The notes below the pieces were generated by a model. That model made no database searches. It was given only the letters and a program-made list of their open reading frames with translations, and was not told the DNA's origin. Position numbers and translations under genes: made by a program. This document shows, piece by piece, positions 29,026 to 62,795 of a stretch of DNA of 64,000 nt. Origin of the DNA: Octopus vulgaris (taxonomy: Eukaryota); contig OX597824.1 in the NCBI GenBank assembly GCA_951406725.2, forward strand, positions 56,358,001 through 56,422,000, given 5' to 3'. Each line of letters starts with the position of its first letter. Position 1 is the first letter of the stretch.

Positions 29026-29268
29026 ATAAGTATTTGCAAACAGGTCTTCCTTTTCATCGCAAACCGGTGTTTTGACTCGTCTAGGGACCCCTCTTTCATC
29101 TGCGTATTGAGAAGTTAGCTGCCTATTTTGTTGAGTGAGTTCGTTTTTTGTTCGTCGTTGTTTATGTTTGCTCGTGAATTGAACAGTTGCCCGGGGCTGA
29201 AAATTCTGTTATTACCTTCGGGGTAATTTTTTTTTTTTATTGAAAGATTGGTTCTCATAATTTGGGAA

Positions 29269-30702
29269 ATGGAGTTCGACTTGGCGTCGAGGAGCGACTT
29301 TCCTGTGATGGGAAAAGGCGAACAGAAGGATATTGAGGTTAAAAAACAGTCTTTTTCGGCCGCAGTGGGCGGAACCATAACGAAAGTAGAATTTAAAATA
29401 GAACAGTTGTTCGAATACCGGAACTTGGTTAAAAAGGAAGGCAACGAAATAACACTGGGACCGCAGCAAGCGATATTACAGGAAATAAAGGCCAAGACAG
29501 TGGTGTACAAGGCTTACAGTAACAAAGAGAAAAAAATAATGGACGTGAAGAACGAAATAGTAGAGAAGTGCTTGTCCCCGGTGTGGAGCAAAATTCGCTA
29601 CGTCGGTCGAGGTGCCCGCAGCGCTACCGTTGAAGCACATTTCGACTCAGCTGATGTGGCAAGAGAGATTTCATCGATGACCTTAAAAAGTGAGGACATC
29701 ATGTTACTACCTACCTATATGGGAAAAAGAACTGCGAAACTATATGTGGAAGACATTCAAAGAGGATATGATATAATGTAGGTAGCAGTGGCGGTTCTGC
29801 ACGACATAGAGCAGAAAGTCTCAATTCTGCAGATGAAAAGGAAAGAGGAGGTAAACTGGAAGGGACAAGTGCTCAAACTCCTCGTTCAAGCAGAAAATAA
29901 TGTGCTAGAAAACTTACCCGATAGGGTATTTATTGAGGAGGGAATTACAATGAGTGTCAGTAGAGGGGCGCAGACCTAGGTGTTTCAAATGTGGTGAAAA
30001 GGGTCACGTCCGCTCGAACTGCATAAAAAAAGAAAAATAGCGAAGCCCCTCCTCAAAGTGCTTCAAACACAGAAAAAGAAAAGGCGGAAAAAGACCCCAA
30101 GACTGCGACAAGGAAGGGAATCGAAACGGAAGATAAAAATGAACAAATGGAATTTACACAGGTGACACACAAAAGAAAAAAAGAAAATACCCTGGACTCC
30201 CCTCCCCAAACAAAGAAAAAAATCAGCAAACACCGCAGAGATACATACAAAACAAATTCCCCAGCCCTACCCCCACGGCACTGTATTCATTGGAACACAG
30301 TTCGCCAAGCCCCTCCCCATAAAACAAGATTGGAAAAAATTGATTAAAAAAAATGAAAAGATTGTAGCATTCGACGAGAAAAACGATAGAGTGTTCAAGT
30401 ATTTTAAATTTTCAAAACTGAAATTATTCAGTAAGTCTGCAGACACTAAGTCGACCACTCATTTTGCAAAAATAAAGGAAGACGAGTGGAAGGAAAAAAC
30501 ACTCCAAGAACATTTTAAAAATAACCTTATCAGAGACGTAACTAACGAAATACTGGAGGGTAAACTTACTATAACCCCGGCAACCACACCTACCCAGAGC
30601 CCGATGGCAACGCCAGTTAAGAGCCCTGCAGCTACGACCACAAGGGAGGAAGAAGGGGAAGCATGCAGATTTAAACTGTCATGCTCCCTGTCCCAACCAT
30701 AA
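29269..30702 (+). pseudogene. LINE ORF1 (Gag-like, CCHC knuckle), disrupted
   Basis: MEFDLASRSDFP start; CFKCGEKGHVRSNC knuckle near 29981-30022; stops and frameshifts. Confidence 0.8.
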
Positions 30703-30730
30703 GTTTTTGTTTTTTTTTCTCTCTCCGACA

Positions 30731-33700
30731 ATGGCAAAGCTGGGTTGTGTGAATGTGCATGGAATGAGGTCGAAATGGAAACAAATTTGTCTCCTGAATG
30801 ACCTCACGACACACGGAGTGGACGTAGCTATTGTAACCGAGTCCAAGATGAACGGGGCCCAAGCGTTCTCGCCTCTTCTAAATGGTTTTGAGAAATTTAT
30901 TTCTCCTAGCCGAGGAGGAGGAAGGGGCGTGGCAGTCCTTCTCAGGAAGAGCTTGGACTTGCAGGTAAGTACTGTCTTTCTGGACCCAGAAGGCAGGCTG
31001 GTCGTTCTGGATGTGACCCACGTAAGTAAACAGTCCTTCAAGTTGGTAGCTGTCTACGCTCCGAATGAGTGTAGGCAGTCGGGTTTTTTTCGGAATCTGG
31101 AGCACTTTTTAGTGACATCGAAAATGGTAGTCTTAGTTGGGGACTTTAACACTGTCCTTGAAGCGCAGGTCGACAGTGTTGGCTCAACCAATAGGAAGGG
31201 GAACCCTAGCCTCAAGGGTCTACTAGAGAGCTTTAATCTAGTAGACCGTTATCGACTGGATGAGCCAAGCGTTCCACAGTGGACGTGGAGTAATATAGAC
31301 GTATATAGATAGGATATTCGTTAGGAAAAGAGATAAGGATACGTTTAGTTGTCCACAGTTTCACATTGTGCCTTACACGGATCACAAATTTGTGACTTGT
31401 AGGGTGCAATTAGATAAGTGTCATAGACAGGGACCCGGGTACTGGAAGCTGAACAAGTCTATTTTGAATTGTGAAGACTTCTGTACCGGGATTAAGGTGT
31501 TAGTACAGAGGGCATTATGTGGCACCATCATTAACAATAGATGGTGGCAGTCCCTCAAAAGAGCCATTCGTTCAGAGTCCATTAGATTTAGCAATCAGCT
31601 AAGGTTAGATAGGTCTAGGATAGAGGACGATTTAGTTAAGAATCTAAACGAGGCAATGGAATCTGGCTCTGCATCCGGAGTGATGGCGGCAAGGACGGTA
31701 TTGTACCGTCACCTTAACTCCAAACACGAAGGTTGCAGAGTTAGAGCTAAGCTATGCGCAGGGAAACGAGAAGGTATTAACGTTGCCGGAGGCAACAAAG
31801 CTTCAATCAAGTCTTTAACTGACGAACAGGGACACAAGATCTATGGACAGGAGGAGATGCAAAAGTTTCTTCACCAGCATTTTGCTCGCATGTTCGGGGG
31901 TGGTGGTTCGCTGGAGTGGGGGAGGGCCTTAAAGGACTTCCTAGCCGGCGGACCGCGGCTCTCGGGGCGTGAGGTGGAGTGCTGTGAAGTAGCGATCACT
32001 CCCACAGAGATAGAGGGGGTACTGGCTGGATGCGCCGGGGAGAAGTCGCCGGGGTTGGATGGTCTGCCCTACGAGTTTTATCAAAGTATGCCGGACTTGT
32101 TCGGGGGAATACTGGCAGGCGTCTACGCGAACTGGCAGCAGAACGGGAAAATTCCCAGTTCTGTAAGCCGGGGAGTGGTGACGCTAATCCAGAAAGACCC
32201 GAGCAAGGGGGATAACATTAGTACTTACAGGCCCATAACTCTACTTTTAGTAGAGTTAAAGATTTTGGCCAAGGTGTTGGCAAAAAGGTTGACGACTGTC
32301 GTGGAGAAACTTGTAGGGAAAGCACAGACATGTGCAATTCCAGGCAGGTCGATCCAGGACAATCTTCACCTTATACGCTACGACTTAGATAGGGTGGGTA
32401 AATTAACCGGCAAGGGCAGGGTAATGGTCCATTTAGACCAAAGTAAAGCGTTCGATAGGGTAGACCATAAGTACCTGGCGACGGTCCTCGAAGCGACTGG
32501 ACTGGGCCCTGAATTTTGCAGGTGGATCTCCACTATGTATAGCGGCATCAAGTCCACCGTCCAGATAAACGGTTACCTAACGGAACCGTTTTCGATCGAA
32601 TGTTCAGTCCGTCAAGGGTGCCCCTTGTCACCACTTTTGTACGTGTTGGCTCTCGAGCCATTGCTGCGAAAGTTGGAGAGGCGGGAGGACGGTTTCTGCT
32701 TATGCAGATGACGTCACCCTCATCGTGTCCAATGAGGCTCAGCTACCTTGTGTAGAAGATGCTATCAGAGGATACGAGGCGGTGGCAGGAGCAAAAGTTA
32801 ACAAGGACAAGTCGATTGGCTTACGCCTCGGCACCTGGAGGAGCAAGTCGATATCGTCCAGTGCCGTGGGACACTGGACAGATGGTCCTGTTAAGTTGCT
32901 AGGAGTTTGGCTTGGGCCAGACTCCCAAACGGAGAGGAATTGGAGTGAGGTGACGGGCAAGGTGGAGGCCATAGTACGGAAGGTTTCTGTCCTTGAAAGG
33001 AAGGGCGGGGTGGTACAGATGTTTATTGCATCTGTAATCACTTACCGCCCGACCGTTGTCCCTTGCCCCGATTCATGGCTTAGCAAGTTGGAGCGAATCC
33101 TTTTCCGCTTTTTGTGGAAGGGAGGAAAGCCACTTGTGAGGCGCTCCGTTTGCTGCCAGGAACCGTTAAAGGGTGGGTTAGGAATGCCTTGGTTGATGAT
33201 GCGCAGACATGCGTTGAGGCTGAAGCATCTCTGGCACCACCTGGAGGGTGATAAGGTGTGGAGTCCGCTGGCAGGGGAATTTTTCCCGAGACCGGCTTCC
33301 TTAGTGAATTTTAAACCCGGTTGCATCAAAAGATGGAATCTGACTCTATGGCAAAAGGAGTGCCGACAGGCACTCACGCTGATCCACAAGGCGGGCAAGG
33401 CCGGCTGCGGAAATACCACCTTGGTATTTTATAGCAGGCTGGTAGAGGCAAAGAACGACGACGTCCTAGGAGGGGCTCTGGGGTTTGACGAGGACCAGCT
33501 TACCAACCTGTTTAAAAAGACTTTCAGGACGGGGTATTTGGATAATTTCCAAAGATCCCTGGCCTGGCAGTGTTATAGGAATGCTTTACCTGTTCGCGAG
33601 AAGTTATCGCGGCACAGAATTTCAGTGCCACCGACATGTCCAAGATGCGGGTTGGACGATGAAACCGTCCAGCACGCTTTTGTACACTGTCGGCAGTTAT

Positions 33701-34029
33701 CAGACTTGATAAGTTACGTGTTATCGCATCTGGGACGAGTACAGCTGTCGGCTGAGTCTATGATTAAGATGATACCGCCAACTGGACTCTCAAAGGAAGG
33801 TGAGGCATGTTTTCACTGCACGGTTGCAGTAGTAAAAGAATGCATGTGGCGTTCAAGAATGGAAGGAGTCGCAATAAGATCCTTTGTCTCAGGCCCCGGC
33901 TTGCTCACTTACTTCAGATATCATCTAAAGAGCAAAATGGGGCTGGAAAAGAAGACCTTACCACGAGGTGTGTATGAAAAAAGATGGAAGGAAGTGGCGA
34001 AAAAGGTGGGTGTCAGAAACCCAGTTTAA
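30731..34029 (+). pseudogene. LINE ORF2 (APE endonuclease, RT, C-terminal zinc finger), frameshifted
   Basis: NVHG, VYAP, GDFN and TDH (APE); KSPGLDG, YRPITLL, LDQSKAFDRVDH, SVRQGCPLSP, YADD at 32701; CPRCG...H...HC. Confidence 0.95.
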
Positions 34030-34281
34030 CTATGGATGGAGAAGAGGAAAGGAAAGCTGCGGGGCCTTATAGGTTGCTGGGGTTTAAAATATATTGGTAA
34101 GATTTCAATCTAATGTAATGTTATATTAGTCAATGCAAAGGACAGTTTATATACAGTTTTTTTGTATAATGAATAATCCATATATTTTGGAAATTTTTAA
34201 ACGAACCACTTAACTGTTTTTGTATGTATGTCCTGTATTGTTCTTCTATGTACTGATTTTATAATCATAATAAAGAATTAA

Positions 34282-34788
34282 TCGTAAACTGGTGTTTTGA
34301 CTCGTCTAGGGACCCCTCTTTCACCTGCGTATTGAGAAGTTAGCTGCCTATTTTGTTGAGTGAGTTCGTTTTTTGTTCATCGTTGTTTGTGTTTGCTCGT
34401 GAATTGAACAGTTGTCCGTTGTGTGACAGTAATTTTCGCCCTACGGGAATGAAAATTCTGTGTATAAACATTGTTATTACCTTCGGGGTAATTTTTTTTT
34501 TTTTTTTTTTTGAAAAATTGGTTCTCATAATTTGAGAAATGGAGTTCAACTTGGCGTCAAGGAGCGACTTTCCCGTGATGGGAAAAGGCGAACAGAAGGA
34601 TATCGAGGTTAGAAAACAGTCTTTCGGCCGCAATGGGCGGAACCGTAACGAAAGTAGAATTTAAAATAGAACAGTTGTTCGAATACCGGAACTTGGTTAA
34701 AAAGGAAGGCAACGAAATAAAACTGGTACCGCCGCAAGCGATATTACAGGAAATAAAGGCCAAGACAGTGGTGTACAAGGTTTACAGT
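34282..34788 (+). mobile_element. Second, head-to-tail copy of the same LINE (5' UTR and ORF1 start only)
   Basis: Closely matches 29058-29520 and breaks off at gtttacagt. Confidence 0.9.
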
Positions 34789-34819
34789 GGGCGGAACCGT
34801 AACGGAAGTGGAATTCAAT

Positions 34820-37620
34820 CGGTGAAAATTTTCAAATAATTTTTGGGTAAAATTTTCTGTGAAAAATTTTGAAAAACCAAATAATGAATATGCTCCATAT
34901 GCTGAAGTCTATAAACGTCGACATCGTCATACTTGTTAAGTGTAAAGCAGAACCTGGTGTATCGTCGATGGTGAGGCATCTTGACAGTAGTAGTAAGCCA
35001 GAATTCACTCTATATATACAGAGAAAGCAGCCGCAGCAGCCACATGAAAGTCTATTTTTAGCAATAACATAAATCTAAGGTCATTTTTGGGTAAAATTTT
35101 CAGTGAACATTTTCGAAAAATTTTGGGGGAAAATTTTTAGTTAAAATTTTCGGGGAAAATTTTTGAAAAACCATATAATATGCTCCATAAACGTTGACAT
35201 CATTTTCAATGAAAATTTTCGAAAAATTTTTGGATAAAATTTTCAGTGAAAATGCCAAAATCACAAAGTATGGAAGGCCAGCGGTGCCAAAATCACAAAG
35301 TATGGAAGGCCAGTGGTGCCAAAATCACAAAGTGTGGAAGGCCAGCGGTGCCAAAATCACAAAGTATGGAAAGCCATTTTTGGATTAAATTTTCAGTGAA
35401 AATTTTCGGAAAATTTTTGGTGAAAATTTTCGACAAATTATTGGGTAAAATTCTCGGTGAAAATTTTCGAAAAATTTTGGGGAAAATTTTTGGTGAAAAT
35501 TTTAGAAAAACCATATAACGAATATGCTCCATATGCTGAAGTCTATAAAGGTCGACATCGTCATAGTTGTTAAAAGTAAAGCAGAATCTGGTGTATCGTG
35601 GATGGTGAGGCATCTTGACAGTAGTAGTAAACTTGAATTCACTTTATATATACACAGAAAGCAGCCACATAAAATCTATTTTTAGCAATAACATAAATCT
35701 ATTTTTGGGTAAAATTTTCGAAAAATATTTGGGGAAAATTTTTTGGTGAAAATTTTCGAAAAATTTTTGGCGTAAAACTTTCAGTGAAAATTTTAGAAAA
35801 ATTTTTGGGGAAAATTTTCGGCAAAAATTTTCAAATAATTTTTGGGTAAAATTTTCGGTTAAAATTTTAGAAAAACCATATAACGAATATGCTCCATATG
35901 CTGAAGTCTATAAACGTCTACATCGTCATAGTTGTTAAGTGTAAAGCAGAACCTGGTGTATCGTGGATGGTGAGGCATCTTGACAGTAGTAGTAAGCCAG
36001 AATTCATTCTATATATACACAGAAAGCAGCAGGCACATAAAAATTTATTTTTAGCAATAACATAAATCTATTTTTGGGTAAAATTTTCAGTGAACATTTT
36101 CGAAAAATGTTTGGGGAAAATATTCGGTGAAAATTTTTGAAAAATTTTTGGGTAAAATTTTCGGTGAAAATGCCAAAATCACAAAGTATGGAAGGCCAGC
36201 GGTGCCAAAATCACAAAGTATGGAAGGCCATTTTTGGGTAAAATTTTCAGTGAAAATTTTTGGAAAATTTTTGGTGAAAATTTTCGAAAAACCATATAAG
36301 GAAGTCTTATATGCTCCATATGCTGAAGTCTATAAACGTCTACATCGTCATAGTTGTTAAGTGTAAAGCAGAATCAGGTTTATCGTGGATGGTGAGGCAT
36401 CTTGACAGTAGTAGTAAACCAGAATTCACTCTATATATACACAGAAAGCAACCACATAAAAATCTATTTTTAGCAATAACATAAATCTATTTTTGGGTAA
36501 AATTTTCGGTGAACATTTTCGAAAAATATTCAAAAAATTTTTGGTAAAATTTTCGGTGAAAATGCCAAAATCACAAAGTATGGAAGGCCAGCAATGCCAA
36601 AATCACAAAGTATGGAAGGCCAGCGGTGCTAATATCACAAAGTATGGAAGGCAAGTGGTGCCAAAATCACAAAATGGAAGGCTAGCGGTGCCAAAATCAC
36701 AAAGTGGAAGGCCAGCGGTGCCAAAATCACAAAGTATGGAAAGCAATTTTTGGGTAAAATTTTCAGTGAAAATTTTCGACAAATTATTGGATAAAATTTC
36801 CGAAAAATTTTTGGATAAAATTTTCGGCTAAAATTTTAGAAAAAACCTTATGACGAATATGCTCCATATGCTGAAGTCTACAAATGTCGACATCGTCATA
36901 GATGTTAAGTGTAAAGCAGAACCTAGTGTATCGTGGATGGTGAGGGATCTTGACAGTAGTAGTAAACCAGAATTCATTCTATATATACACAGAAAGCAGC
37001 AGGCACATAAAAATCTATTTTTAGCAATAACATAAATCTATATTTGGGTAAAATTTTCGGTGAAAATGCCAAAATCACAAAGTATGGAAGGCCAGCGGTG
37101 CCAAAATCACAATGTATGGAAGGCCAGCGGTGCCAAAATCACAAAGTATGGAAGGCCAGCAGTGCCAAAATCACAAAGTATGGAAAGCCATTTTTGGGTA
37201 AAATTTTCAGTGAAAATTTTCGACTAATTATTAATAATTTTCGGTGAAAATTATCGAAAAACCATATAACGAATATGCTCCATATGCTGAAGTCTATAAA
37301 CGTCGACATCGTCATAGTTGTTAAGAGTAAAGCGGAACCTGGTGTATCGTGGATGTTGAGGCATCTTCACAGTGGTAGTAAGCCAGAATTCACTCTATAT
37401 ATACACAGAAAGCAGCAGGCACATAAAAATCTATTTATAGCAATAACATAAATCTATTTTTGGGTAAAATTTTTGGGAAAAATTTTCGAAAAAGTTTTGG
37501 TTAAAATTTTCGGTGAAAACTTTCAAAAAACCATATAACGAATACGCTCCATATGCTGAAGTCTATAAACGTTGACATCGTTTTCGGTGAAAATTTTCGA
37601 AAAATTTTTGGTGAAAATTT
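34820..37620 (-). repeat. Composite tandem array: ~200-bp units encoding a CRESS-type Rep N-terminus, interleaved with 32-bp repeats and gaaaattttc-type repeats
   Basis: Six full units (~34872, 35506, 35870, 36287, 36841, 37257) and two partial ones (~35167, 37526); minus-strand translation MPHHPRYTRFCFTLNNYDDVDVYRLQHMEHIRYMVF. Confidence 0.85.
35506..35613 (-). pseudogene. rep: Representative CRESS-DNA-virus/circovirus-like Rep N-terminal fragment (RCR motif I)
   Basis: RFCFT(L/F)NNY followed ~16 residues later by Y(M/L)VF, matching the circovirus-like Rep pattern up to just before motif II; tatatata lies ~30 bp upstream of the ATG. Confidence 0.7.
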
Positions 37621-39800
37621 GAAAATATTTCAAAATATTTGTGAAAATTTCAAAATATTGCAAATAAGCATAAAAAAGTGAACAAAACAAAATGTATCAA
37701 AATATAGCAAATAAAATGTATCTTGATACATTTTATTTGCTATATTAAGCAAGTATAGGAAAAAAGTGAAGAAAATTGCCCATTCCAATTTGTTGTAATT
37801 TAGTACTTATTTGCAATATTTTGACACATTTTGCATCTCTAGTGGATGAATGTAATCTTGTCAAAATTTTGCAAGAACAAAATTGCTATTTCATACTTCT
37901 TGTTTTTTAGTACCTATTTGCAATATTTTGACACATTTTGTATCCTAAAATACTTTGAGACTTTATATTTACTCAAGAGATCACTCAAGTCACAAAAGTT
38001 TTTAGAAAACAAAATGTATCAAAATATAGCAAATAACATGTATCAGAACATAGCAAATATAGCAAAAAAAGTGAACAAAATTGCCAATGCCAATTTGTTG
38101 ATTTTTAGTACTAATTTGCAATATTTTAACACATTTCGTATCTTTAAAACTTTTGAGACTCTTGTGACATCTTGGATGAATGTACTCTTATTATCAATCT
38201 GTTAACTTATATTTACTCAAGGGAGCACTCAAGTCACATACGTTTTGAGAAAACAAAATATATTGCAAATAAGCATAAAAAAGTGAAAATTGCTGTTTCA
38301 TACTTCTTGTTTTTTAGTACTTATTTGCAATATTTTGACACACTTTGTATTTTTTAAACTTTTTAAACTTTAGTTTTGAAACTTGGATAAATGTAATCTT
38401 ATTATCAATCTGTTAACATATTTACTCAAGAGATCACTCAAGTCAGAAAAGTTTTCAAAAAACAAAATGTATCAAAATATAGCAAATAAGCATGAAAAAG
38501 TGAACAAAATTGTTAATTCAAATTTGTTGCAATATTTTGACACATTTACATCTTAAAAATTTTTGTATACTGTTTTAATATATTGCAAATAAGCATAAAA
38601 AAGTGAACAAAATTGCCATTTCATACTTCTTATTTTCTAGTACCTATTTGCAATATTTTGACACATGTTGTATACTGAAATCTTTTAAGACATAAGTGAT
38701 CTCTTGGATGAATGTAATCTTATTATCAATCTGTTAACTTCTATTTACTCAAGAGATCACTCAAGTCAAAAAAGTTTTCAAAAAACAAAATGTATCAAAA
38801 TATAGCAAATTAGCATAAAAAAGTTAACAAAATTGTTAATTAAAATTTGTTGCAATATTTTGACACATTTTGCATCTTAAAAACTTTTGAGAGTTTAGTG
38901 ATCTCTTACTCAAGTCACAAAAGTTGTGAGAAAACAAAATGTGTCAAAAAGCATAAAGAAGTAAACAAAATTACTATTTCATACTTCTTGTTTTTTAGTA
39001 CTTATTTGCAATATTTAGACATTTTGTATTTTGAAAACTTTTGAAACTCTAGCGATCTCTTGGATAAATGTAATCTTATTATCAATCTGTTAACTTATAT
39101 TTACTCAAGCGATCACTCAAGTCACATACGTTTTGAGAAAACAAAATGTTTTAATATATTGCAAATAAGCATAAAAATGTAAACAAAATCGCTATTTCAT
39201 ACTTGTTTTTTAGTACCTATTTGCAATATTTTGACACATTTTGTATACTGAAATCTTTTAAGACTTTAGTGATCTCTTAGATTATTGTCAGAAAAGTTTT
39301 CAAAAAGCAAATAACCATTAAAAAGTGAACAAAATTGTTAATTTATATTTCTTGTTATTTAGTACTTATTTGCAATATTTTGACACATTTCATATCTTGA
39401 AAACATTTGAGACTCTAGTGAATGTAATCTTGTCAAAATTTTGCCAATAAACATAAAAAAGTAAACAAAATTTGCTATTTCTTGTTTTTTAGTACTTATT
39501 TTTCAAGATACAAGCGATCACTAAAGTTAACTCAAGGGATCACTCAAGTCATAAGTTTTGAGAAAACAAAATATTTTAATATATTGCAAATAAGCATAAA
39601 AAAGTGAACAAAATTGCTATTTCATACTTCTTGTTTTCTAGTACCTATTTGCAATATTTTGACACGTGTACTGAAATCTTTTAAGACATAAGTGATCTCT
39701 TATATGAATGTAATCTTATTATCAATCTGTTAACTCAAGAGATCACTCAAGTCAGAAAAGTTTTCAAAAATCAAAATGTATCAAAATATAGCAAATAAGT
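37620..39800. repeat. AT-rich complex satellite with internal inverted motifs
   Basis: Recurrent aaaatattgcaaataagcataaaaaagtgaacaaaattgc...gtacttatttgcaatattttgacaca and gatcactcaagtca modules. Confidence 0.85.
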
Positions 39801-40319
39801 TTGATTTGAATGTGTTGTCTATTTCGTTTGATTTGAGCGTTAATGCCGGGCCAGTATATACATTCCTTGGCTCGCTCTGTGCATTTTTCAATACCCATGT
39901 GTCCGGTATGTATTTCCTGTAGAGCTTCTCTACGTAATGACTTAGGTACAATGATTCTTGGACCTTTTAGAACGAGACCATTGACGATCGATATTTCATC
40001 ACGAACAGAGACGAATGGTTTGATGTTTATTGGTATTTTGTCTTTTGGGGGGCCATTCTGTTCTTGTATATGTGATGAGAGTCTGTAGTGACGGGTCGTC
40101 TGCAGTGGCTTTTTTGTACTCGTTTAATTTAGTGTCGGTTATGGGGTAATTTTTTATTACTGCATGTATGTGCGATTTCATATCTTCGTCTGATGCTTCT
40201 GGAGTATTTTGTTCAAGGTATGCACGTGATAGGGTATCTGCAACAACTGATTCTTTACCAGGTATGTGGTTTAGGTCAAAATCGTATCTTTGTAATGCTA
40301 GTAGAAATCTTTGGATTCT

Positions 40320-41501
40320 TCATTTAGTGATCGATTTTATGAATATTTGCTTCAACGGTTTATGGTCATTTTCGATTCTGAAATGAGTTCCGTATATAAA
40401 CTGATGAAATTTCTTGCATGCAAAAACTATACTGAGAGCTTCGCTCTCTATCGGACAGTAGTTTTGTTCCGCTTGAGTTGTTGCACAAGATGCAAACGAA
40501 ACAGGTAGCCATCTTTCGTTGTGTTTCTGCTCAATTATCGCTCTGAGCCCATGCTCACTAGCATCTGTAGTTATTTTTATTGGTAGATCTGGATCATAAA
40601 ATTGTAGCACTGGTTTTCTGGTAATCATTTCTTTTAGCTTTTTTATTGCTTCGATTTGGGGTTTGTTGAATGACCATAACGTGTCACTCTGTAGAAGCTG
40701 GCGTAATGGTGCTGTAACATCGGAGTAATTTGATAAAAATTTACATAGGTAATTTGTCATACCTAGGAATCTTTGTAATTCTTTTTTACTTGTTGGCAGT
40801 GGCATGTGAATGATTGCTTGCACTTTGGTTGGATCTTGTTTTATCCCTTCGCTGGTTAATAGATGCCCAAGGTACGTAATTTGTGATTCATAGAAGATAC
40901 ACTTTGATTTATTTAACTTTAATCCGTGCTTTCGGATTCGTTCGAAAACTTGTTGTAGTCTATTTCTGTGTTCTTCTAAAGTGCTGGACCAGATTATAAT
41001 GTCATCCTGTGAATTTCGTGCTCCTTCTATACCCTCTATTATTTTTGCGATTTCTTTTTGGAAAACTTCACTGGCGCTGTGAATTCCATAGGGTAGTCGT
41101 GTGAAGCGATATCTTCCAAAAGGTGTGTTGAACGTTAACAGGTGAGAGCTTTCTTCGTCAACTGGAATTTGCCAGTATCCATTAGATGCATCGAGTTTCG
41201 AAAAATATTGCATATGACGAGCTATTTGAGTTTTGGTGCCTTTTCTGTCGTGTTGACTATATACCCTTGAGATTTCGTTATCTCTTGTTTCGGATGTGGT
41301 GTTCAGCATCCTTGATTGGTGTGGTGTTTGCTCTGCACTCTGACCTGCTTGAATTGTTTTTTGTAAGTCTAAATTTGGTTCTCTCAATAATATCTCTCTT
41401 AGTCTCATGTCTCTGATTCCACATATCAGAATATCTCTGGTGAGACTGTCTGTGAGGTTGCCGAATTTGCACTGTTGTGCCTTTTGGCGCAACTCTACCA
41501 T
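40320..41501 (-). pseudogene. Gag remnant fused in frame to RT/RNase H (outer Gypsy)
   Basis: LDASNGYWQIP, FNTPFGRYRFTRLPYG, SQDD, TTDAS and NDHKPL; protease and RT N-terminus are missing. Confidence 0.92.
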
Positions 41502-41506
41502 GTACT

Positions 41507-44500
41507 TGTAGTGACGTCATATTCCAGTGTGCGCACACGCAACGTCATTCTTCAGTGTGTGTGTGCGGAACGTCACCTTTGTAGTGACGTCATGTTTCAG
41601 TGTGCGCACACGCAACGTCATTCTTCAGTGTGCGTGTGCGGGGTTGGAACCTTCTGGAAAGTCATAAGGAAGTTCCCTCATGCACATGCGCTAGAGACTG
41701 AAGAATAAATTCCATAGCGTTCCTTAATAGCATCGGGGACTTGAGACACGGCGATAGAAGAGAAAGGACGTATATTTTGAAACCTGTGATCAGCCTATTC
41801 TCCTGTCCCAGACGCTTAGGATTTGACCTGTTCTGTTGCTGCTGAATTGTTGTAAAGCTTACAAACGTTTGAATTCAGCCTTGCTGCATTGAACTAGGTG
41901 GATACCAGCATACCATCGTGTTTCATTGTTGAACCAAGAAAATAAACAATTATATATATTTTTAAACTTGCGTTTCGTTCCTGACTGGTAGTTTCTAGAA
42001 ACAAAAAGAAAGGAAATTGTGTTGCACCCAAGTTGCACCCCAAAAGTGTAAAGAAGCAACCAGTTCCCTTTACACTGGTGACCCCGAACATAGAACATTT
42101 AACTGAAATCTAGAATCTACCTAGTCTGAACCAATCAACCCGCCGCAGTCATTATCTTTCAACAATTTGTCTCCAGTCGTCTCAAGCAGTTTCAGCAATT
42201 TCCTCATCGACGAAAAAAGTTTGACTTAAGCTGTTAGTGCGATCCGTGACCAAGCATAACAGGCAGTCAAACTTAAGAAGAGACAGTTTAAAATACATAA
42301 CATTAAAAAAATTTGTTTTAGACGCGACGAAGGTTGGTAAAATAAAAAAAAAGGAATTTTTTATTCTCTGTGCATACAGTACAAAAAAACAAACAAAAAA
42401 GACATTTTTTTTTGTAAATTGCTGGTCTTGTTTTTCCTTTTTTCCTTGTTGCGTCTTTTCAACTTTGATTCGTTGTCATTTACCTTTCCTTTGACAGAAT
42501 CATCTAGTTAAAATAAAAAAAAGAACATGTCTTTGGCATCATTACCTATTTTCACGGGTGATGCCGCACTTTGGTTTGCACAACTAGAGGCATATTTTTG
42601 TGCACATAGTGTTTCTTCTGATCAGCAGTTGCAAATTCTTTATAGTTGTATGCCTCCTTAACTTGCAACTACTGCCAGAGATCTTATTACGGATCCTTCT
42701 CCAGACGCCACTTATGCGTCTGTTAAATTAGAAGTGGAGAAGAGAAATACTAGAAGCGAGGAAAGTCGCTTCAATGAATTGATGGCGGATGAGGAGTTGG
42801 GAGATAGGACTCCGTCTGAATTTTTGAGACGCCTAAGAGAGTTGAGCGGTAAAGCTGCAGACGCTCCTCTTCTTCGAAAAATTTTTTTTTCAAGGTTGCC
42901 CGCCTATATACAAACTGTTTTGGCAACCGCTTTAGAGTCCAATTCCGTGGACCAGATAGCAACTATGGCAGATAAAATGGTTGAATTTGCCATGCAACCA
43001 CCGTCATGGTCTGCTTGTGCCTGCTCACAAACTTCTTCAGCCTCAATTGAGGGACTTTCTAAACAAATAGAAAGTCTCACCAAAAGGAGGGACGCGATGG
43101 CAAGCGATTTTCCAGATCACGTAGTCGTAGCCGTTCATCATCACGTACCACACAGTCAAAGTCCGGACTCTGTTGGTATCACTCCAAATTTGGAGAGAAA
43201 GCACATAGGTGCATACAGCCATGCACCTATAAAGATTTAAACTAGCTTCGGAGGAGTTGAGCATGTCAACCTCCTCCACATCATTTTCTAGTTATCGTGC
43301 ATTTTTCGTTAAGGATCTAGTGTCGAAGAAATACTTCATGGTGGACACTGGTTCTTGTTGCAGCATTTGGCCTCTGCGTCTTACAACCGACAAGCCAAAA
43401 CGATCTAATGTTACCTTGCACGCTATTGACTCGTCACCAATAGCCACATTCGGTCAGATCTCTTTACACCTTGACATAAATCTTCGTCGAGATTTTCAGT
43501 GGGTTTTTGTCATTGCTGACATTCCGCATCCTATTTTAGGTGTGGATTTTCTAAATAATTTTGATTTATTGGTAGATGTCAGACGTCGGAGGCTAGTCGA
43601 CAGTTCAACTACACTCTCCACGCCGACCAGAGACTCTACCGATTCAGCTCTTAGCCCGACATTTTTTGTTTCTACATCTGGAGATGTTTTTCATTCTCTT
43701 TTGGCTTCTTTTCCAGAGCTACTTGATTTTACCTTTAAAATGGCAAAATCAATACACTCGACACTCCATTTTATTACAACAACTAGCCGCCTGTTTTTTC
43801 GCGCCCACGGCGTCTTGCTCCTGACCGTCTTAAAATGGCTAGGGCTGAGTTTGAGCATATACTCCAGCTTGGTCTGATACGCCCATCCACCAGTCCATGG
43901 GCATCACCCCTTCATTTAGTTCGAAAAGGGGATACAGATTTTCGCCCGGTGGGAGATTATTGGCGTCTAAATTCTGTGACAATTCCGGACAGATATCCAA
44001 TTAGGACTTTTCAGCGAATCTCCATGGCTGTACCATTTTTTCTAAGGTTGACCTCATAGTGTTTATCATCAAATACTGGTCAACCCAGACGATGTTCCTA
44101 AAACAGCTATTACCACTCCTTTTGGTTGTGTTGAATTTTTATGTATGAGTTTTGGTTTTGGGAACGCCACTAGTACGTTCCAACGTTTTATAGATGAAGT
44201 TGTTCGTGGACTTGATTTTGTTTTCGCGTTTTCTCATCGCAAGTGATACGCATGAAAATCATCTCCAGCACTTGTCTCAGCTTTTTCAGTGTCTTCGCGA
44301 CTATGGTGTTCGCATTAATCCAGACAAGTGTGTTTTTGGGCAACCATCTCTTGATTTTCTCGGTCATTATATTGATTCGAGTGGAATCAAACCACTCTCG
44401 TCTAAAGTCGATGCAATTCAGCGCATCGCACCACATTCTTCTTTGCGTCAACTTCGCCATTTTGTGGCTGGCTATAGTTAATTTCTATCGACGCTTCATA

Positions 44501-47168
44501 AACCGGTGTGCGGACAAGTTGTTTCCTTTAACGCAGTTGCTAAAGGGCAATTCTAAAAAGGACGCCCGTCTTACTCTTTCAGCTGAAGCACTGTCTGCCT
44601 TTGAGTTAGTTAAAAAGGAACTAGCTTCAGTTCCTGTTTTAGCACATCCGGCTCCTGATGCTCCACTTACTTTATCTGTGGACGCATCAGATTCTGCAGT
44701 TGGCGCTGTCTTGCAGCACACCGTAGATGGTGAAACTAAACCTTTGGCTTTCTTTTCTTGCCAGCTAAAGCCTGCTGAACGCAGACATAGTACTTTTGAT
44801 CGAGAGTTACTAGCGACCTATCTGTCAGTTCGGCATTTTCAGCACCAGCTCGAGGGACGAGAGTTTGTGATTTATACTGATCACAAGCCCCTTACTTTTG
44901 CACTATCTTCTAAAATGGATAAACTCTCTCCTCGTGCTTTCCGTCACCTGGACTATATTTCTCAGTTTACAAGTGACATTCGACATGTGCCAGGGAAGGA
45001 GAACGTCCCAGCTGATGCTCTTTCTAGACTCCCTGTCAATTCCATTTCCTCTCCGGCAGAAATTGACTTAACTGCTATTTCGCAGGATCAACCACCTTTA
45101 GCGGAGTTGGATTTAACTTCGCCCAAGCTCATCAATTGTAAGTTTGCCTACCGACCGCTCCCTTCAGCAGAAGGCTCTATTCTTTGTGACATATCCACCG
45201 GTTCTCCTAGACCGTTAGTACCTGAGAAATATCAACGTTCTGTTTTTGATGCTCTTCATTCATTGTCACATCCAGGTATCTCTGCCACAGTAAAGCTTGT
45301 TACTGCTCGGTTCTTCTGGCCCAATATGCGACGATCGATTACCTCTTGGGCACGCTCTTGTTTGAGACACATTCGTGCTCCACTTGGACAGTTTTCTTCT
45401 CCTGAGGCCCGTTTTCGCCATGTCTACCTTGATTTGGTTGGACCATGGCCTGTGAGTCGCGGGTTCTCATATATTTTAACCTGTATTGATCGTTTCTCAC
45501 ATTGGCCGGAAGCTATTCCTATAGCAGACATTTCTGCTGAAACTGTTGCGAAAGCTTTCGTGTCTAATTGGATTTCTAGGTATGGTGTACCGTCCAGTTT
45601 AACCACAGATTGTGGTCGACAATTCGAAGCAGTTTTATTTCGTGAGTTATCACGAATCTTGGGAATGCATCATATACGCACCACTAGTTACCACCTCGCT
45701 TCTAATGGGATGGTGGAGCGTTTCCACAGGCAACTTAAGGCCGCGTTGCGTGCCTCGCCGAATCCACAGTCGTGGACTGAATTTCTTCCTATCGTCTTGC
45801 TTGGATGTCGGACTGCGATTAAAGCAGACTTTGGTTTTTCTTCTGCCGAGCTCTTGTATGGTACCACACTGGCATTGCCTGGTACGATGTTGGTGCCAGA
45901 CAAGTCACAGTCTCTTAATTTAGTCTTATGTTGCTCGTCTACGCAGATATTTTTCTGCCCTTCCTCCTATAGGCCCTCGACACCAAAATCCTTCTAATAT
46001 GCCATCAGATCTTGATTCTTGGACGCATGTTTTTGTTCGTGATGATTCTGTCAAAGGACCACTTGTTTCTCCTTATAAAGGACCTTTTCGTGTGATTTCT
46101 CGCACGCCGAAGGTATTCAAACTTGAAATTAACGGTCGTTCGGAGACCGTATGCGTAGATCGTCTTAAAAGGGCATATTTTGAGGTGTCCACATCTTTTG
46201 ATGACCCCACTGCCACAACCATCGTTGAACCTTCACATGCACTTTTGACAACACCACCATTTACACATGCACCTTTATCAACACCACTTTCGTCGTTGCA
46301 GCCTGCCTCGAACAAACCTTATGTTACGAGGTCAGGCAGAACTGTTCACTGGCCGAAGAAACTTTCAAAGACGATTTATATTTAACATTCTCAATTGACT
46401 TCCCAGTGACAGTTACGATACTAATTGAACTTTGTTCATTTGAGTATTATTTTTTCTTTTCCTTTGCTGCATGCTTGTTTATATTATGGATTTTTTTTTT
46501 TGTTTTAATTTGTCATATTGTGTGCCATTTTGGTGATTTGGTATCCACCTTATATTCTGAGGCCACTACAAGGAATTTTGTTTCGTGCTTCTGCACTCGA
46601 GGGGGAGCTTTTGTAGTGACGTCATATTCCAGTGTGCGCACACGCAACGTCATTCTTTAGTGTGCGTGTGCGGAACGTCACCTTTGTAGTGACGTCATGT
46701 TTCAGTGTGCGCACACGCAACGTCATTCTTCAGTGTGCGTGTGCGGGGTTGGAACCTTCTGGAAAGGCATAAGGAAGTTCCCTCATGCACATGCGCTAGA
46801 GACTGAAGAATAAATTCCATAGCGTTCCTTAATAGCATCGGGGACTTGAGACACGGCGATAGAAGAGAAAGGACGTATATTTTGAAACCTGTGATCAGCC
46901 TATTCTCCTGTCCCAGACGCTTAGGATTTGACCTGTTCTGTTGCTGCTGAATTGTTGTAAAGCTTACAAACGTTTGAATTCAGCCTTGCTGCATTGAACT
47001 AGGTGGATACCAGCATACCATCGTGTTTCATTGTTGAACCAAGAAAATAAACAATTATATATATTTTTAAACTTGCGTTTCGTTCCTGACTGGTAGTTTC
47101 TAGAAACAAAAAGAAAGGAAATTGTGTTGCACCCCAAAAGTGTAAAGAAGCAACCAGTTCCCTTTACA
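41507..47168 (+). mobile_element. Ty3/Gypsy LTR retrotransposon (inner), structurally complete
   Basis: LTRs 41507-42074 and 46612-47168 (tgta...taca); PBS tggtgaccccga at 42076-42087 (tRNA-Trp-like); PPT gagggggag at ~46599; 4-bp TSD tact/tatt. Confidence 0.96.
42527..46385 (+). pseudogene. gag-pol of the inner Gypsy (protease, RT, RNase H, integrase, GPY/F), multiply frameshifted
   Basis: LGDRTPSEFLRRL (gag), VDTGS (PR), SPWASPLHLV (RT), VDAS and TDHKPL (RH), [14 protein letters not shown] and SNGMVERFH (IN), PYKGPF. Confidence 0.95.
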
Positions 47169-47948
47169 TATTCATCGAATTTTTGATGTTCCACTTGTCC
47201 ACATGTGAAGAATTTGTGTCTCAGGAAAGTTATGTTTTTCCTGGGTTCACAATATGTATCGAATTTTTCGATTACTGTTTGAAGGTTCATTTCTTCGTCG
47301 GGTGAATCGAAATCCAGAGTGGAATGGATGTCTCGGCCTTTGGAACCGATGCAAGTTAAAAACATTGAAGTTTTTACTTTGTGTCACTTTATGTCACTTT
47401 CTGTTGCTATCAAAAAGAGATTGAATTCTTTCTTCCACTTTGTCCATGCTGCGGCTAGATTTTCCTGATTAAAGTCTAGGTCTTTTGGATGCGGTAAATT
47501 TTCCATTTCGTCTTTGAAGTATGATTTCAACTTCTTTTTTCTTTTGGTTTCTGTATGATGGGTTCTTTTAGTATTCTGACACCATGTTGTTGTTATACAT
47601 ATATATATATAATGTATACTGTATTGAGTATGAAAGGAAATAGTGAGTACTTAGTATGAAAGATTAAGAAAGTGAGAGAGACTGGATAAGCGTGTTAACA
47701 ATACGAGATACTTTATTAGACTGCTGCTTATACAAAGGTATCTCCCGGGGCAGGAGATTTACTGATTGTCTCTGTATCAAGGAAGATAATGGGCGACGTT
47801 AATTGTTCATATTTGTTGTGATGATTACATTAACACTAGGTAAATGTTTGATAGTATCTTTAATTTTACTCTATATGGCATGATTTAAGTATACCATTGT
47901 TGAATTGCTACATGGTGGTTCTCTAATTTATATACATATATTATATAT

Positions 47949-58829: not shown

Positions 58830-61800
58830 TTTCTTCAAGTTTAAAATGGAATCTTTATTATGATCATGAGGATCTTATATAGAATGGGACAATACAGGGC
58901 AAACAAAAACAAAAATGTTATGTGAGTTCATATGAGTTACATGTAAAAATTTACTTTAAAATATTTTATATAACGATTAAATTTTCCTTTAACAAGGACT
59001 TTTTTAAAAAAATAAAACGAAAACAAACAAAGAAAAACGAACAAAAAGATTAAAAGATCGAACCCGGCAGTCTATAAAGCCCAGCAACGATCTTTTCCTT
59101 TCATCAATGATTAAACTGGGTTACTAACACCCACCTTTCTCATCACATCCTTCCATCGTTTCTCGTATTCTCTCGGAAGCAGGTTCCTCCTCTCCAACCC
59201 CATCTTGCTCTTCAGGTGGTATCTGAAGTAAGACAGCAAACCGGGGCCAGAGATGAAGGACCCTTTCACCGAACCTTCCATTCTCTTTCTGCAAACAGAC
59301 TCTTTCAGTACTGCAACCGTACAGTAAAAACGTGCCTTACCTTCCTTTGTGAGTCCAGTTGGCGGTATCCTCTTTATTATAGATTCAGCTGACAGCTGTA
59401 CTCGTCCTAGATGTGACAGCACGTGTTCGACGTAACTTATCAAGCTAGATAGCTCCCGACATTGTACAATAGCATGCTGGACAGTTTTCTTGTCCACTCC
59501 GCATCTTGGACACGTCGGTGACACTGGTACTCCGTGTCTGGATAACTTATCTCGAACAGGTAAAGCGTTCCTATAACACTGCCAGGTCAGGGATTTTTGG
59601 AAGTTATCCAAATACCCTGGCCTGAAAGTTTTTTTAAACAGGTTGGTGAGTTGGTTCTCATCGAACCCCAGAGCCCCTCCTAGGACGTCATTGTTTTTTT
59701 CCTCTACCAGCCCTCTATAGAACACCGAGGTGGTATTCCCGCTGCCGGCCTTGCCCGCCTTGTGGATCAACCAGAGTGCCTGACGGCACTCCTTCTGCCA
59801 TGAAGTCAGGTTTCGTCTTTTAATGTCTGCGCATCTTCAGCCAGGGTATCCCCAGTCCACCCTTTAATGGTTCCTGGCAGCAAACGGAGCGCTTCACAAG
59901 TGGCTTTCCTCCCTTCCACAAAAAGTGGAAGAGGATTCGTTCCAACTTGTTTAGCCAAAAATCGGGGCAAGACACCACGGACAGGCGGTAGGTGATTACA
60001 GATCACCTATCTATAAACTATAAACACCTGCACCACCTCCGCCCTGCCCTTCAAGGACAGAAGCCTTCCATACTATGGCCTCCACCTTCTTCACTACCTC
60101 GGCCCAATTCTTCTCCGCCTGGGAGTCCGGACCAAACCAAACTCCGAGCAACTTAACAGGACCATCTGTCCAGATTATCCTGAATCGACCTGCCTGGGAT
60201 TGCACATGTCTGTGCCTTCCCGACAAGTTTCTTCACGAACAACTGTCAACCTTTTTGCTAGCACCTTGGCCAAAATCTTTAACTCTACATTAAGTAGGAT
60301 TATGGGCCTGTAATTACTGATACTATCCCCCTTGCTCGGGTCTTTCTGGACCAGTGTCACAACTCCCCGCCAGTATATCCCCGAACAAGTCCGGCATACA
60401 ACGATAAAACTCATAGGGCAGACCATCTAACCCCGGCGACTTTTCCCCGGCGCACTCAGCCAACACCTCTTTTACCTCCTAGGGCGTGATCGGTCCTTCA
60501 CAGCATTCAACCTCACATGTCGAAAGTCGCAGCCCACCGGCTAGGAAGTCATTTAAGGGCTCACTCGCTCAAGCGGACCACTCTCCCCGAACAACTGAGC
60601 AAAATGTTAGTGAAAGACTTTCTGAATCTCCTCCTGTCCATAGATCTTGCGTCCCCGTTCGTCCGTTAAAGACTTTATAGAGGACATTTTACCTCTCTGA
60701 CTCTCCACATGACGTGCCCATTTCCCTGCGCGTAGCTTGGCTCTGACTCTGCAGCCTTCATGCTTGGCGTTACAAGACCTTTCTCGCTGCCAACACTCTA
60801 GATGCAGAGCCAGATTCCATTGCCTCGTCTAAGTTCTTCACTAAATCGCCCTCTATTCCAGTCCTATCTAAACTTAGCTGCTTGCTAAATCTAATGGACT
60901 CTGAACGAATAGCTCTTTTGAGGGCGTGCTACCATCTATTGTTAATGATGGTGCCACATAATGCCCTCTGAACTAACTCCTTAATCCGGGTACGGAAAGC
61001 TTCACAAGTCAAAATAGACTTGTTCATTTTCCAGTACCCGGGTCTGACATTTATCTACATTTACCTCACACGTCACAAGTTTGTGATCCGGGTAAGGCAC
61101 AATACAAAATTGTGGACAACTAACACTATTCTTATCTCTTTCCTTAATAAATACCCTATCTAGGTACGATCTGTGTGAGCCATCGTTGTTACTCCACGTC
61201 CACTGTGGAACGTTCGGCTCATCCAGTCGGTAAAGGTCTACTAGATTATAGCTCTCTAGTAGACCCTTGAGGCATGGATTCCCTTTTCTATCAGTTGAGC
61301 CCACACTATCGACCTGCACTTTGAGGATAGTGTTGAAGTCCCCTAACAAAACTAACGTTTTAGACGTCACTAGAAAGTGCTCCAGGTTCCGATAAAAACC
61401 AGACTGCCTACACTTCTCAGGAGCGCAGACAGCTACCAACCTGAAGGACTGTTTACTCAGATGAGTCACATCTAGTACAACCAGCCTGCCTTCTGGGTCC
61501 AGAAAGACAGTACTTATCTGTAAGTCCAAGTTCTTCCTGATAAGGACTGCTACGCCTGCACCCCCTCCTCGGCTAGGAGAAATACATTTCTCGTAACCAT
61601 CCAGAAGAGGCGACAACGCTTGAGGTTCACTCATCTTGGACTCAGTTACAATTACAACATCTATTCTATGTGTCATGAGGTCGTTCAGAAAACAAGCTTG
61701 TTTCCATCTCGACCCCATTCCACGTACATTCAAACAACCTAACTTAATCATTGAAGAAAAGAAAATGAATTACTTAAGGTTGTGAGAGGGAGAATGGCAG

Positions 61801-62795
61801 TTTATGTCTACCAGCTTCCCCAGCACTCCCCGTAGCTGCTGGGCTTTTCACCGGCGTTGCCACTGGGCTCTGGTTAGGAGTGGCTGCCGGGCTGATAATT
61901 AGCTTCCCAGCTATTACCTCCTGGGTAACATCTTTTATGTTTTTGTTTAGCAAGTGTTCCTGGAGGAGCTTTCCTTTAAACTCCTCCTCTCCGACTTTTG
62001 CATATCGCGTGTCGGGCTCCCCACCAGTCATTTAAAAAAAAATTATACGGCTATTAGCCTTGATTAGTCGTAAAACCTTCTCGTTTTTTTCATTGAACGA
62101 TATTATTTTGTCTGATTTTTTGACACCTTTTAACACAGGGGGGTGGGGTTTGTTAAAAAGCTGACCTACAAATGTAGTGTTAGCTGGGAGAGATTGGGGA
62201 ATTTTTTGCTGTTCTTGCGTGTTTGCAGTTTTTCTTTTTGTTTGGGGAGGGGAGTCCGGGGTGCATTCTTTTTTACGCTTGTATGTCAGTTGTAAATTCC
62301 ATTTGGTCGCTTTACTTTTGTTTTTTCTCTTCTTTCTGTTTTTCATTATGTTTTTCACATTGTTTTTTTCTTCCTTTTCTTTTTCGTTTTGCTTCTTTTT
62401 GTCACTGTCGTTTTGTTTTTTTTGAGTGACGCTCTCCTGTCTCACTGCGTTTTGGGGAGGGACCTCAACTGTTTTTTTTTTTCGTACAGGTAGAGCGAAT
62501 GTGGCCCTTCTGCCCACACTTAATGCATCTGGGCCTACGACCCTCTACCGACACACGAATTGTATGTCCCTCCCCTACGGAGATCCTATCAAGCAAACTT
62601 TCGAGGGTTTAGTTGTCCCCTTGGACAACCATCTCTAAACTCTGGCCTCTCCAGTTCGTAGCCTCCTTCATTCTCATGTTCAGTACAGTTACCTTTGCCT
62701 CCACGTCGTATACGACTGCCGTTGCTGCCCACATTACATCATACCCGGCCGGTATGTCTTCTACTGATATTTTTGCTGTTTGCCGGCCTAAGTAA
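58830..62795 (-). mobile_element. L1/Tx1-clade LINE related to 29058-34280, 5'-truncated and internally deleted
   Basis: APE ORF 61002..61751 and zinc-finger ORF 59111..59770 closely resemble the plus-strand element; ORF1 remnants at 61774-62795. Confidence 0.92.

Follow-up and report, generated by a model that had tools for sequence, protein, structure and literature searches.

The array in the window (the whole 64,000-nucleotide stretch of Octopus vulgaris DNA that was analysed) is real, is of viral origin and is more widely spread than was first noted. The best explanation, to which a probability of about three in four (0.74) is given, is that a fossil 205-bp start of a CRESS-virus Rep gene lies within an octopus AAAATTTT minisatellite, likely after one break-repair capture, and that passive amplification and spread along with the satellite likely followed. 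As protein the units likely have no role, and the array is probably functionless. It is a CRESS-derived endogenous element, of a kind already known in several molluscs, and not a new class of transposon.

Composite array in the window and its Rep cargo

The cargo is a piece of about 205 bp, composed of a TATA-like motif, a leader and the first 36 codons of a CRESS-virus Rep. The features of the array and its left junction are as follows.

34278..34788, plus strand: left flank, a LINE 5' fragment, 86% like 29053-29520, cut off by the array
34785..34818, plus strand: 34-bp copy (88%) of flank 34631-34664 at the left junction, resembling a templated insertion
34820..37657, no strand: whole composite array of AAAATTTT minisatellite backbone, Rep cargo and 32-bp sub-arrays
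34872..35077, minus strand: full cargo unit 6, ATG at 34979
35156..35189, minus strand: degenerate partial unit, 3' end only
35253..35376, no strand: 32-bp sub-array, 3.9 copies
35506..35706, minus strand: full cargo unit 5, ATG at 35613
35871..36075, minus strand: full cargo unit 4, ATG at 35978, 36 codons open, with FTLNN as Rep motif I and a TATA-like motif 39 nt upstream of the ATG
36171..36230, no strand: 32-bp sub-array, about 2 copies (read from the sequence and the repeat family)
36287..36494, minus strand: full cargo unit 3, ATG at 36400, stop at codon 7, indel near the 3' end
36563..36741, no strand: 32-bp sub-array, 5.7 copies
36841..37045, minus strand: full cargo unit 2, start codon ATC at 36948
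37067..37190, no strand: 32-bp sub-array, 3.9 copies
37257..37461, minus strand: full cargo unit 1, ATG at 37364
37516..37581, minus strand: partial unit, codons ~18-36; partials with about the same start point occur 42 times in 11 loci

A preliminary description of this DNA had counted six full and two partial units of about 200 bp on the minus strand, and all of them were located. It had also reported a common break codon and one unit with its ATG mutated to ATC; the cargo indeed switches to A/T-rich backbone at codon 36-37 in all six full units, and the ATC was found at 36948. The peptide that it quoted is exact only in the unit at 35978; the rest carry substitutions, and the unit at 36400 has the stop and the indel listed above. 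The full units read, with substitutions, MPHHPRYTRFCFTLNN...YMVF and then A/T-rich sequence, and each has a TATATA run 39 nt upstream of its start codon. The units of the window are 4-8.5% apart from each other (mean pairwise distance 0.063).

The repeated pieces of the supposed ~200-bp tandem array are present, but they are not arranged head-to-tail, since minisatellite and 32-bp sub-arrays lie between them. From start to start, the full units are spaced by 634, 365, 422, 548 and 416 bp. Between the units lie short arrays of the 32-mer and a 12/13/24/37-bp minisatellite, the core of which is the self-complementary octamer AAAATTTT. The true period of the array is 365-634 bp, because the ~205-bp piece is cargo within a hairpin-forming AAAATTTT 12/13/37-bp host minisatellite. 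The octamer occurs 52 times in the 2841 bp of array, compared with nine times in the remaining 61159 bp of the window.

The array peptide has rolling-circle motif I and N-terminal homology to HUH Reps. In a profile search, which had been proposed as a check, the 37-aa piece alone matched Pfam Viral_Rep under the curated cut-off in three of the four window units tested (E 0.011-0.034), and no match was obtained for the fourth. The CRESS-type Rep origin was nevertheless supported through a longer relative in the same genome, the Rep at C14:64.34 Mb, which scores 5e-23 against Viral_Rep. The window peptide shares 24 of 35 residues (69%) with this Rep (pairwise E 1e-18), and the genome-wide protein search with the array peptide reached it with an E of 1.2e-9. 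Two database proteins are 64-67% identical to the array peptide over 33 residues; the remaining Reps among the 303 database proteins compared are 39-52% identical. Judged from these comparisons, the Rep likeness of the peptide is not due to chance.

A promoter in the 97 bp upstream is suggested by position only, as these gave no significant alignment with three viral leaders (P 0.35-0.82 in nine comparisons). The TATA-like motif lies 39 nt before the ATG in the array versus 42-56 nt in three viral fossils, a spacing that would agree with a viral Rep promoter, and the bases around the ATG match the relative at C15 at 16 of 17 positions (E 0.12).

Genome-wide distribution, carrier and age

The DNA search with the unit gave at least 74 matches, from the best 40 of 182 candidates, and the protein search with the array peptide gave at least 135, from the best 150 of 173 candidates; another genome search scored the best 150 of 172 candidates. 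An exact 23-mer of the cargo occurred 79 times (control 0). In 31 regions 208 Rep pieces were found, 129 of them near-full. Thirty-three cargo-bearing regions were examined, five more sites from the protein and 23-mer matches lie outside them, and all matches together fall on 13 contigs. The cargo lies in host chromosomes and is inherited, as indicated by differing host flanks in the 33 regions, by decayed copies and by four public runs, under four coded organism labels, whose contigs cover the Rep part. In the one run guessed to be RNA the unit is covered by contigs alone, which counts neither for nor against expression. The earlier idea of an endogenous ssDNA-virus fragment amplified into a satellite is supported; what it missed is that a wider host minisatellite carries the fragment and that over 30 loci contain it.

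An exact 32-base word of the backbone occurred 245 times (control 0). Fourteen backbone regions were picked from the first 100 of these 245 matches, with known Rep loci excluded. The cargo was present in none of the 14, the 32-mer in five, and neither of them in nine; therefore the backbone exists without the viral piece. As the regions were picked at places without known Rep, they show that cargo-free arrays exist and do not give their frequency. Host inserts have also been co-amplified locally by the backbone; for example, an insert of about 600 bp occurs about seven times at C18:30.13. All four backbone stretches computed fold as single-stranded DNA hairpins (z -3.1 to -4.2 versus shuffles), and the cargo and the 32-mer showed no such excess of folding. 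Inverted cargo, in both orientations, was found in 10 of the 24 multi-piece regions.

One end of the cargo is common to the 33 regions, and 152 of 182 pieces pass to the backbone at codon 35-36. Four of the five protein matches reaching past residue 43 were translated, and all four run into backbone. No match to motif II/III, helicase or capsid was found in 47 regions (572 kb). The origin hairpin is absent from the arrays, in which only two loose nonamers without stems were found in 119 kb, and the three places with the origin pattern in the genome are all outside arrays. No terminal repeats or ends are shared: the cluster ends are ragged in 34 regions, except for three loci with one palindromic insertion. 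Flank repeats of at least 8 bp, as expected from target duplications, occur in two of 34 regions versus 3.6% in the null, which is the chance level. The palindromic insertion is MITE-like, about 400 bp long and 94-96% identical, and it is common to L044, L049 and L125 (C1:7.46, C7:2.53 and C3:4.43 Mb) at the 5' end of the cargo. As loci on different chromosomes share the insertion, a block moved after it.

A foldback or TIR DNA transposon was considered as carrier and is not supported: there are no common ends, the flank repeats (two of 34 versus 3.6%) are at the level just given, and Merlin served as no more than the insertion site of the C14 fossil.

The copies evolve neutrally. When 126 units were compared with the commonest codon of each column, pN/pS was 0.97 with copies counted and 0.93 with distinct variants, and the reading frame is open in 60 of the 126. 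The mean pairwise distance is 0.100 within loci and 0.114 between loci, and 51 of 106 units have their nearest neighbour within their own locus. From the column majority the units differ by a mean JC distance of 0.067, or about 7% (116 units). With a calibration in which 0.065 corresponds to 18 million years (PMC13282606), the age of the copies is roughly 18 million years, a rough value based on one published calibration and blurred by homogenisation. Distances between loci are star-like, and the central copy C31:11.71 is the nearest for 21 of 26 other loci. Loci on the same chromosome are somewhat closer (0.093 versus 0.107, P 0.001). The star-like loci, the same-chromosome closeness and the recurrent partials fit a single capture, after which blocks of several units were built early, spread in a burst and later grew locally.

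Related viral fossils in the octopus genome

The preliminary description had suggested a search for copies continuing into motifs II/III and an SF3 helicase. Relatives with one or the other were found at C14, C15 and C11, and none was found in the arrays. Motifs II/III, the SF3 helicase, a capsid-like gene and the nonanucleotide stem-loop of the source family are distributed among the C14, C15, C11 and C12 relatives and are not in the array, which is linked to this virus family because of the common Rep N-terminus (64-69% identity). No direct parent of the array unit was found, and the closest of the longer Reps has 73% DNA identity over 105 bp.

The Rep at C14 (L031:1383-1794) is the only full HUH Rep domain from the genome search with Viral_Rep. 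It has 104 aa with motif I, motif II HLQG and motif III YCQK, matches solved Rep structures (E 2e-14), and ends after motif III. It has no helicase and lies inside a Merlin-type transposase gene, between the DSW and NH motifs, which had suggested a new element. In an empty-site test of 29 loci, the interval was 412 bp in the C14 copy versus 37-39 bp in 23 distinct other copies (27 rows); therefore the C14 Rep arrived as one insertion, and bases of the target were lost. This test ruled out the 104-aa Rep, as a single 412-bp insertion, being a Replitron or helicase-less Rep element, and it also ruled out a Merlin-Rep hybrid.

The relative at C15:38.11 Mb (L113:1261-3255 and L115:1-2125) is an integrated ambisense CRESS genome with host repeats at its flanks. 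Its TAGTATTAC hairpin has a 9-bp stem, and the origin region is present twice, 2144 bp apart, on both sides of the element. The Rep start is 64% identical to the array peptide, the motif II region is missing, and the SF3 helicase has Walker A, Walker B and motif C. An Arg-rich ORF on the opposite strand has no Pfam match; its closest Atlas clusters are Cressdnaviricota capsids (Circo_capsid) at 0.90, which is only a lead. At C11:25.61 Mb (L135:499-2058), a convergent capsid-like and Rep-helicase fossil abuts a piece of a 7tm_1 GPCR gene, and its Rep is 88% identical to an Octopus bimaculoides protein over 258 aa. The fossil at C12:6.09 Mb (L146:960-1900) has the 3' part of the capsid gene and an origin hairpin; its Rep is almost wholly deleted, leaving a few first codons and the C-terminal tip. 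Its Rep direction is opposite to TAGTATTAC, unlike that of C15, and the fossil may represent a defective genome in a second layout. The C15 and C11 proteins are labelled Octopus vulgaris in the database, and the label of the C15 Rep record bears out the mollusc host that had been proposed from the array.

Genome-wide, 10 Rep-helicase and six capsid-like matches were obtained. Further fragments of this virus group, capsid-like or from the helicase, are in L145 and L147 (C31:6.46 and 3.48 Mb), L148 (C6:7.17 Mb) and L136-L143; L145 and L147, both on C31, are apparent duplicates of each other. Two 18-bp DNA matches in L145/L147 were considered as Rep and ruled out.

In a quick tree of the helicase (50 of 50 rows used, five distant Reps left out), four octopus rows and one unnamed protein formed an octopus clade with an SH-aLRT of 99. 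The nearest named virus to the C15 Rep is Dragonfly larvae associated circular virus-10 (43% identity). The name of its lineage does not occur in one supplement of PMC9615429, and other supplements of that paper may have it. The Cressdnaviricota near this virus share with the octopus family FTLNN, HLQG, YCxK, the SF3 helicase, the TAGTATTAC hairpin and a size of ~2.1-2.3 kb; the difference is that the octopus sequences form their own clade. A close free virus was not found; the best 80 IMG/VR loci reach 33-50% identity, and none of these 80 matched the capsid-like ORFs. One IMG/VR contig, L180, is free, 2.25 kb long and circular-virus-like, with a TAGTATTAC hairpin; its Rep start is 49% identical to the array peptide over 41 residues, and its helicase is 32% identical to that of C15.

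The related fossils point to a virus group likely to infect octopuses. A CRESS virus lineage can thus be tied to octopuses as likely hosts, with fossils of one clade in two Octopus species; most such viruses have, to our knowledge, no known host.

Origin of the arrays and comparison with known elements

A series of events is proposed for the formation of the arrays. Viral DNA might have entered the octopus germline repeatedly, as suggested by the independent fossils at C11, C12, C14, C15 and elsewhere. One viral fragment would have been joined into the fold-back minisatellite at a break, by break repair; breaks, like template switching, are favoured by repeats that form hairpins. Slippage, unequal exchange and template switching might have multiplied and inverted the cargo locally, which is suggested by the inversions in 10 of 24 regions and the templated-looking copy at the window junction. 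Multi-unit blocks could have reached new sites by repair-mediated copying or by re-insertion of circles. Most of this spread would belong to a single early burst at around 18 million years, after which some blocks would have spread along a chromosome. The order, backbone first and cargo second, is a proposal only. By riding a minisatellite, a non-retroviral fragment could thus have a route to more than 200 pieces in an animal genome without an origin or transposase.

The whole satellite might instead be viral, if slippage in the Rep codons that follow the break (G-x-E to H-U-Q) gave rise to both the 12/13-bp backbone and the 32-bp repeat and the cargo-free arrays later lost the recognisable part. 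Both the 32-mer and the backbone have their best local match directly behind the break codon of the C14 Rep, and the 32-mer is present in five of the 14 cargo-free regions. However, the matches to the motif II codons are within chance (shuffle P 0.15 and 0.26; window P 0.18 and 0.31), nine of the 14 picked regions have neither cargo nor 32-mer, and the other viral fossils are not tied to the backbone (0-5 octamers each). This origin is considered unlikely. A shade less likely still is that the arrays are kept for a use, either as a putative transcribed source of siRNA/piRNA from inverted segments against octopus CRESS viruses or as putative promoters for neighbours. The cargo in both orientations in 10 of 24 multi-piece regions and the position of the TATA-like motif relative to the viral fossils would agree with such a use, and siRNAs are reported from the tandem repeats of yam EGV (PMC5014472). 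Against it, the codons evolve neutrally, the copies are still diverging (pairwise 0.10-0.11), the nearest other family member is 27% different in DNA, and inversions are expected anyway from a self-complementary backbone. A bolder form is that the fold-back host minisatellite acts as a trap and amplifier of viral DNA, that it brought the captured Rep start to hundreds of copies, and that inverted arrays give putative small RNAs against an undescribed octopus virus lineage, as a heritable antiviral memory; this is as doubtful as the entirely viral satellite.

The preliminary description had also offered a Replitron-like derivative, and this option was not sustained: an SF3 helicase, a capsid-like gene and a nonanucleotide origin all occur in the family, and conserved ends are missing from the arrays. 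In a broader form, the array would be a non-autonomous rolling-circle element (Replitron-like or GRD/Helitron-like) served by a Rep in trans. The dispersal over 13 contigs without target duplications is compatible with this, as HUH transposition generally leaves none (PMC10288648), and the backbone is computed to form hairpins. However, there are no conserved ends, no origin and no multicopy helicase-less Rep; the helicase is present in C15 and C11, and the C14 piece, the sole full HUH domain found, is single, truncated and absent from 23 other Merlin copies. Instead of defined ends with short direct repeats, ragged and unshared ends were found in 34 regions, and the family has helicase and capsid-like genes. 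A rolling-circle element is thus improbable, clearly more so than the readings above. A carrier transposon with eroded ends that went undetected is possible. As for assembly artefact, contamination or chance similarity of the peptide, the Pfam score of the fragment is under the cut-off; however, the window units are 4-8.5% apart, 33 regions have different flanks, the Rep part occurs in the contigs of the four differently labelled runs, and the identity to a full Rep domain is 69%, and this explanation is given almost no weight.

The preferred reading, a captured viral fragment amplified within a host minisatellite, has its closest precedent in GRD2/3/5/53 of Nicotiana and EGV1 of yam (PMC5014472). 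These are also truncated ssDNA-virus rep genes with upstream sequence in direct repeats in host chromosomes, and GRD is neutral (PMC5014472), as is the array. In the GRD/EGV units, unlike in the array, an origin-like hairpin is retained, and these units are grouped at only one or two sites of the chromosomes (PMC5014472); whereas the octopus array has no origin, only 36 codons and a minisatellite for which it is cargo, at more than 30 sites on 13 contigs of an animal host. CRESS endogenous elements have been reported in the molluscs Modiolus, Mytilus, Biomphalaria and Conus, with 1-4 in each (PMC6069186), and CRESS-derived fossils in pillbug, Crassostrea and Lottia (PMC4231630). Like these (PMC6069186, PMC4231630), the octopus sequences are Rep-derived fossils in a mollusc genome, integrated without target duplication. 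The reported elements are few and mostly independent insertions; the main text of PMC6069186 makes no mention of octopus, and the parts consulted do not describe satellite amplification.

Replitrons share with the octopus family a Y1 HUH Rep related to CRESS Reps, the HUQ motif II and a location in eukaryote genomes (PMC10288648). They are multicopy elements of 2-4 kb that lack a helicase and end in short direct repeats, and their reported hosts are the green lineage, stramenopiles, cryptophytes and haptophytes (PMC10288648); whereas the octopus family has helicase and capsid-like genes, and its arrays lack defined ends. A search confined to papers outside subscription yielded none that deals with this satellite or with CRESS fossils of octopus. 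The words 'virus', 'viral' and 'satellite' do not occur in the main text, as consulted, of a study of O. vulgaris repeats (PMC13282606), and the repeat library of that study may hold the repeat unnamed. The 116 near-full neutral copies provide a dated sample (about 18 million years) for the calibration of ssDNA-virus rates, and could also be of use for studying the spread of satellites between chromosomes.

Several other elements were noted in the window. Two diverged LINE copies, both encoding endonuclease and RT, are at 29053-34081, neighbouring the left flank, and at 59063-61965; they are in opposite orientation and ~78-83% alike. On the right, a second A/T-rich quasi-palindromic array (37660-39800) with many inverted arms of 60-90 bp abuts the cargo array; it was not found beside any other fetched cluster. 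It is followed by nested LTR retrotransposons (39800-47170), including a gypsy-like element on the plus strand that is flanked by direct repeats of 569 bp (41506-42074 and 46611-47168, 97.5%); remains of RT/RNase H are on the minus strand at 39764-41516. An open frame at 27453-27923, with a signal-peptide-like hydrophobic start, an acidic tract and no Pfam match, is possibly the first exon of a secreted host protein. The window also has a Pif1 helicase fragment (4517-5101, Helitron-like) and a DDE_3 transposase fragment (12196-13023), together with a frame at 17844-18713 and another at 24874-25852, which we take by resemblance to be Penelope-like and a mariner-like transposase, respectively.
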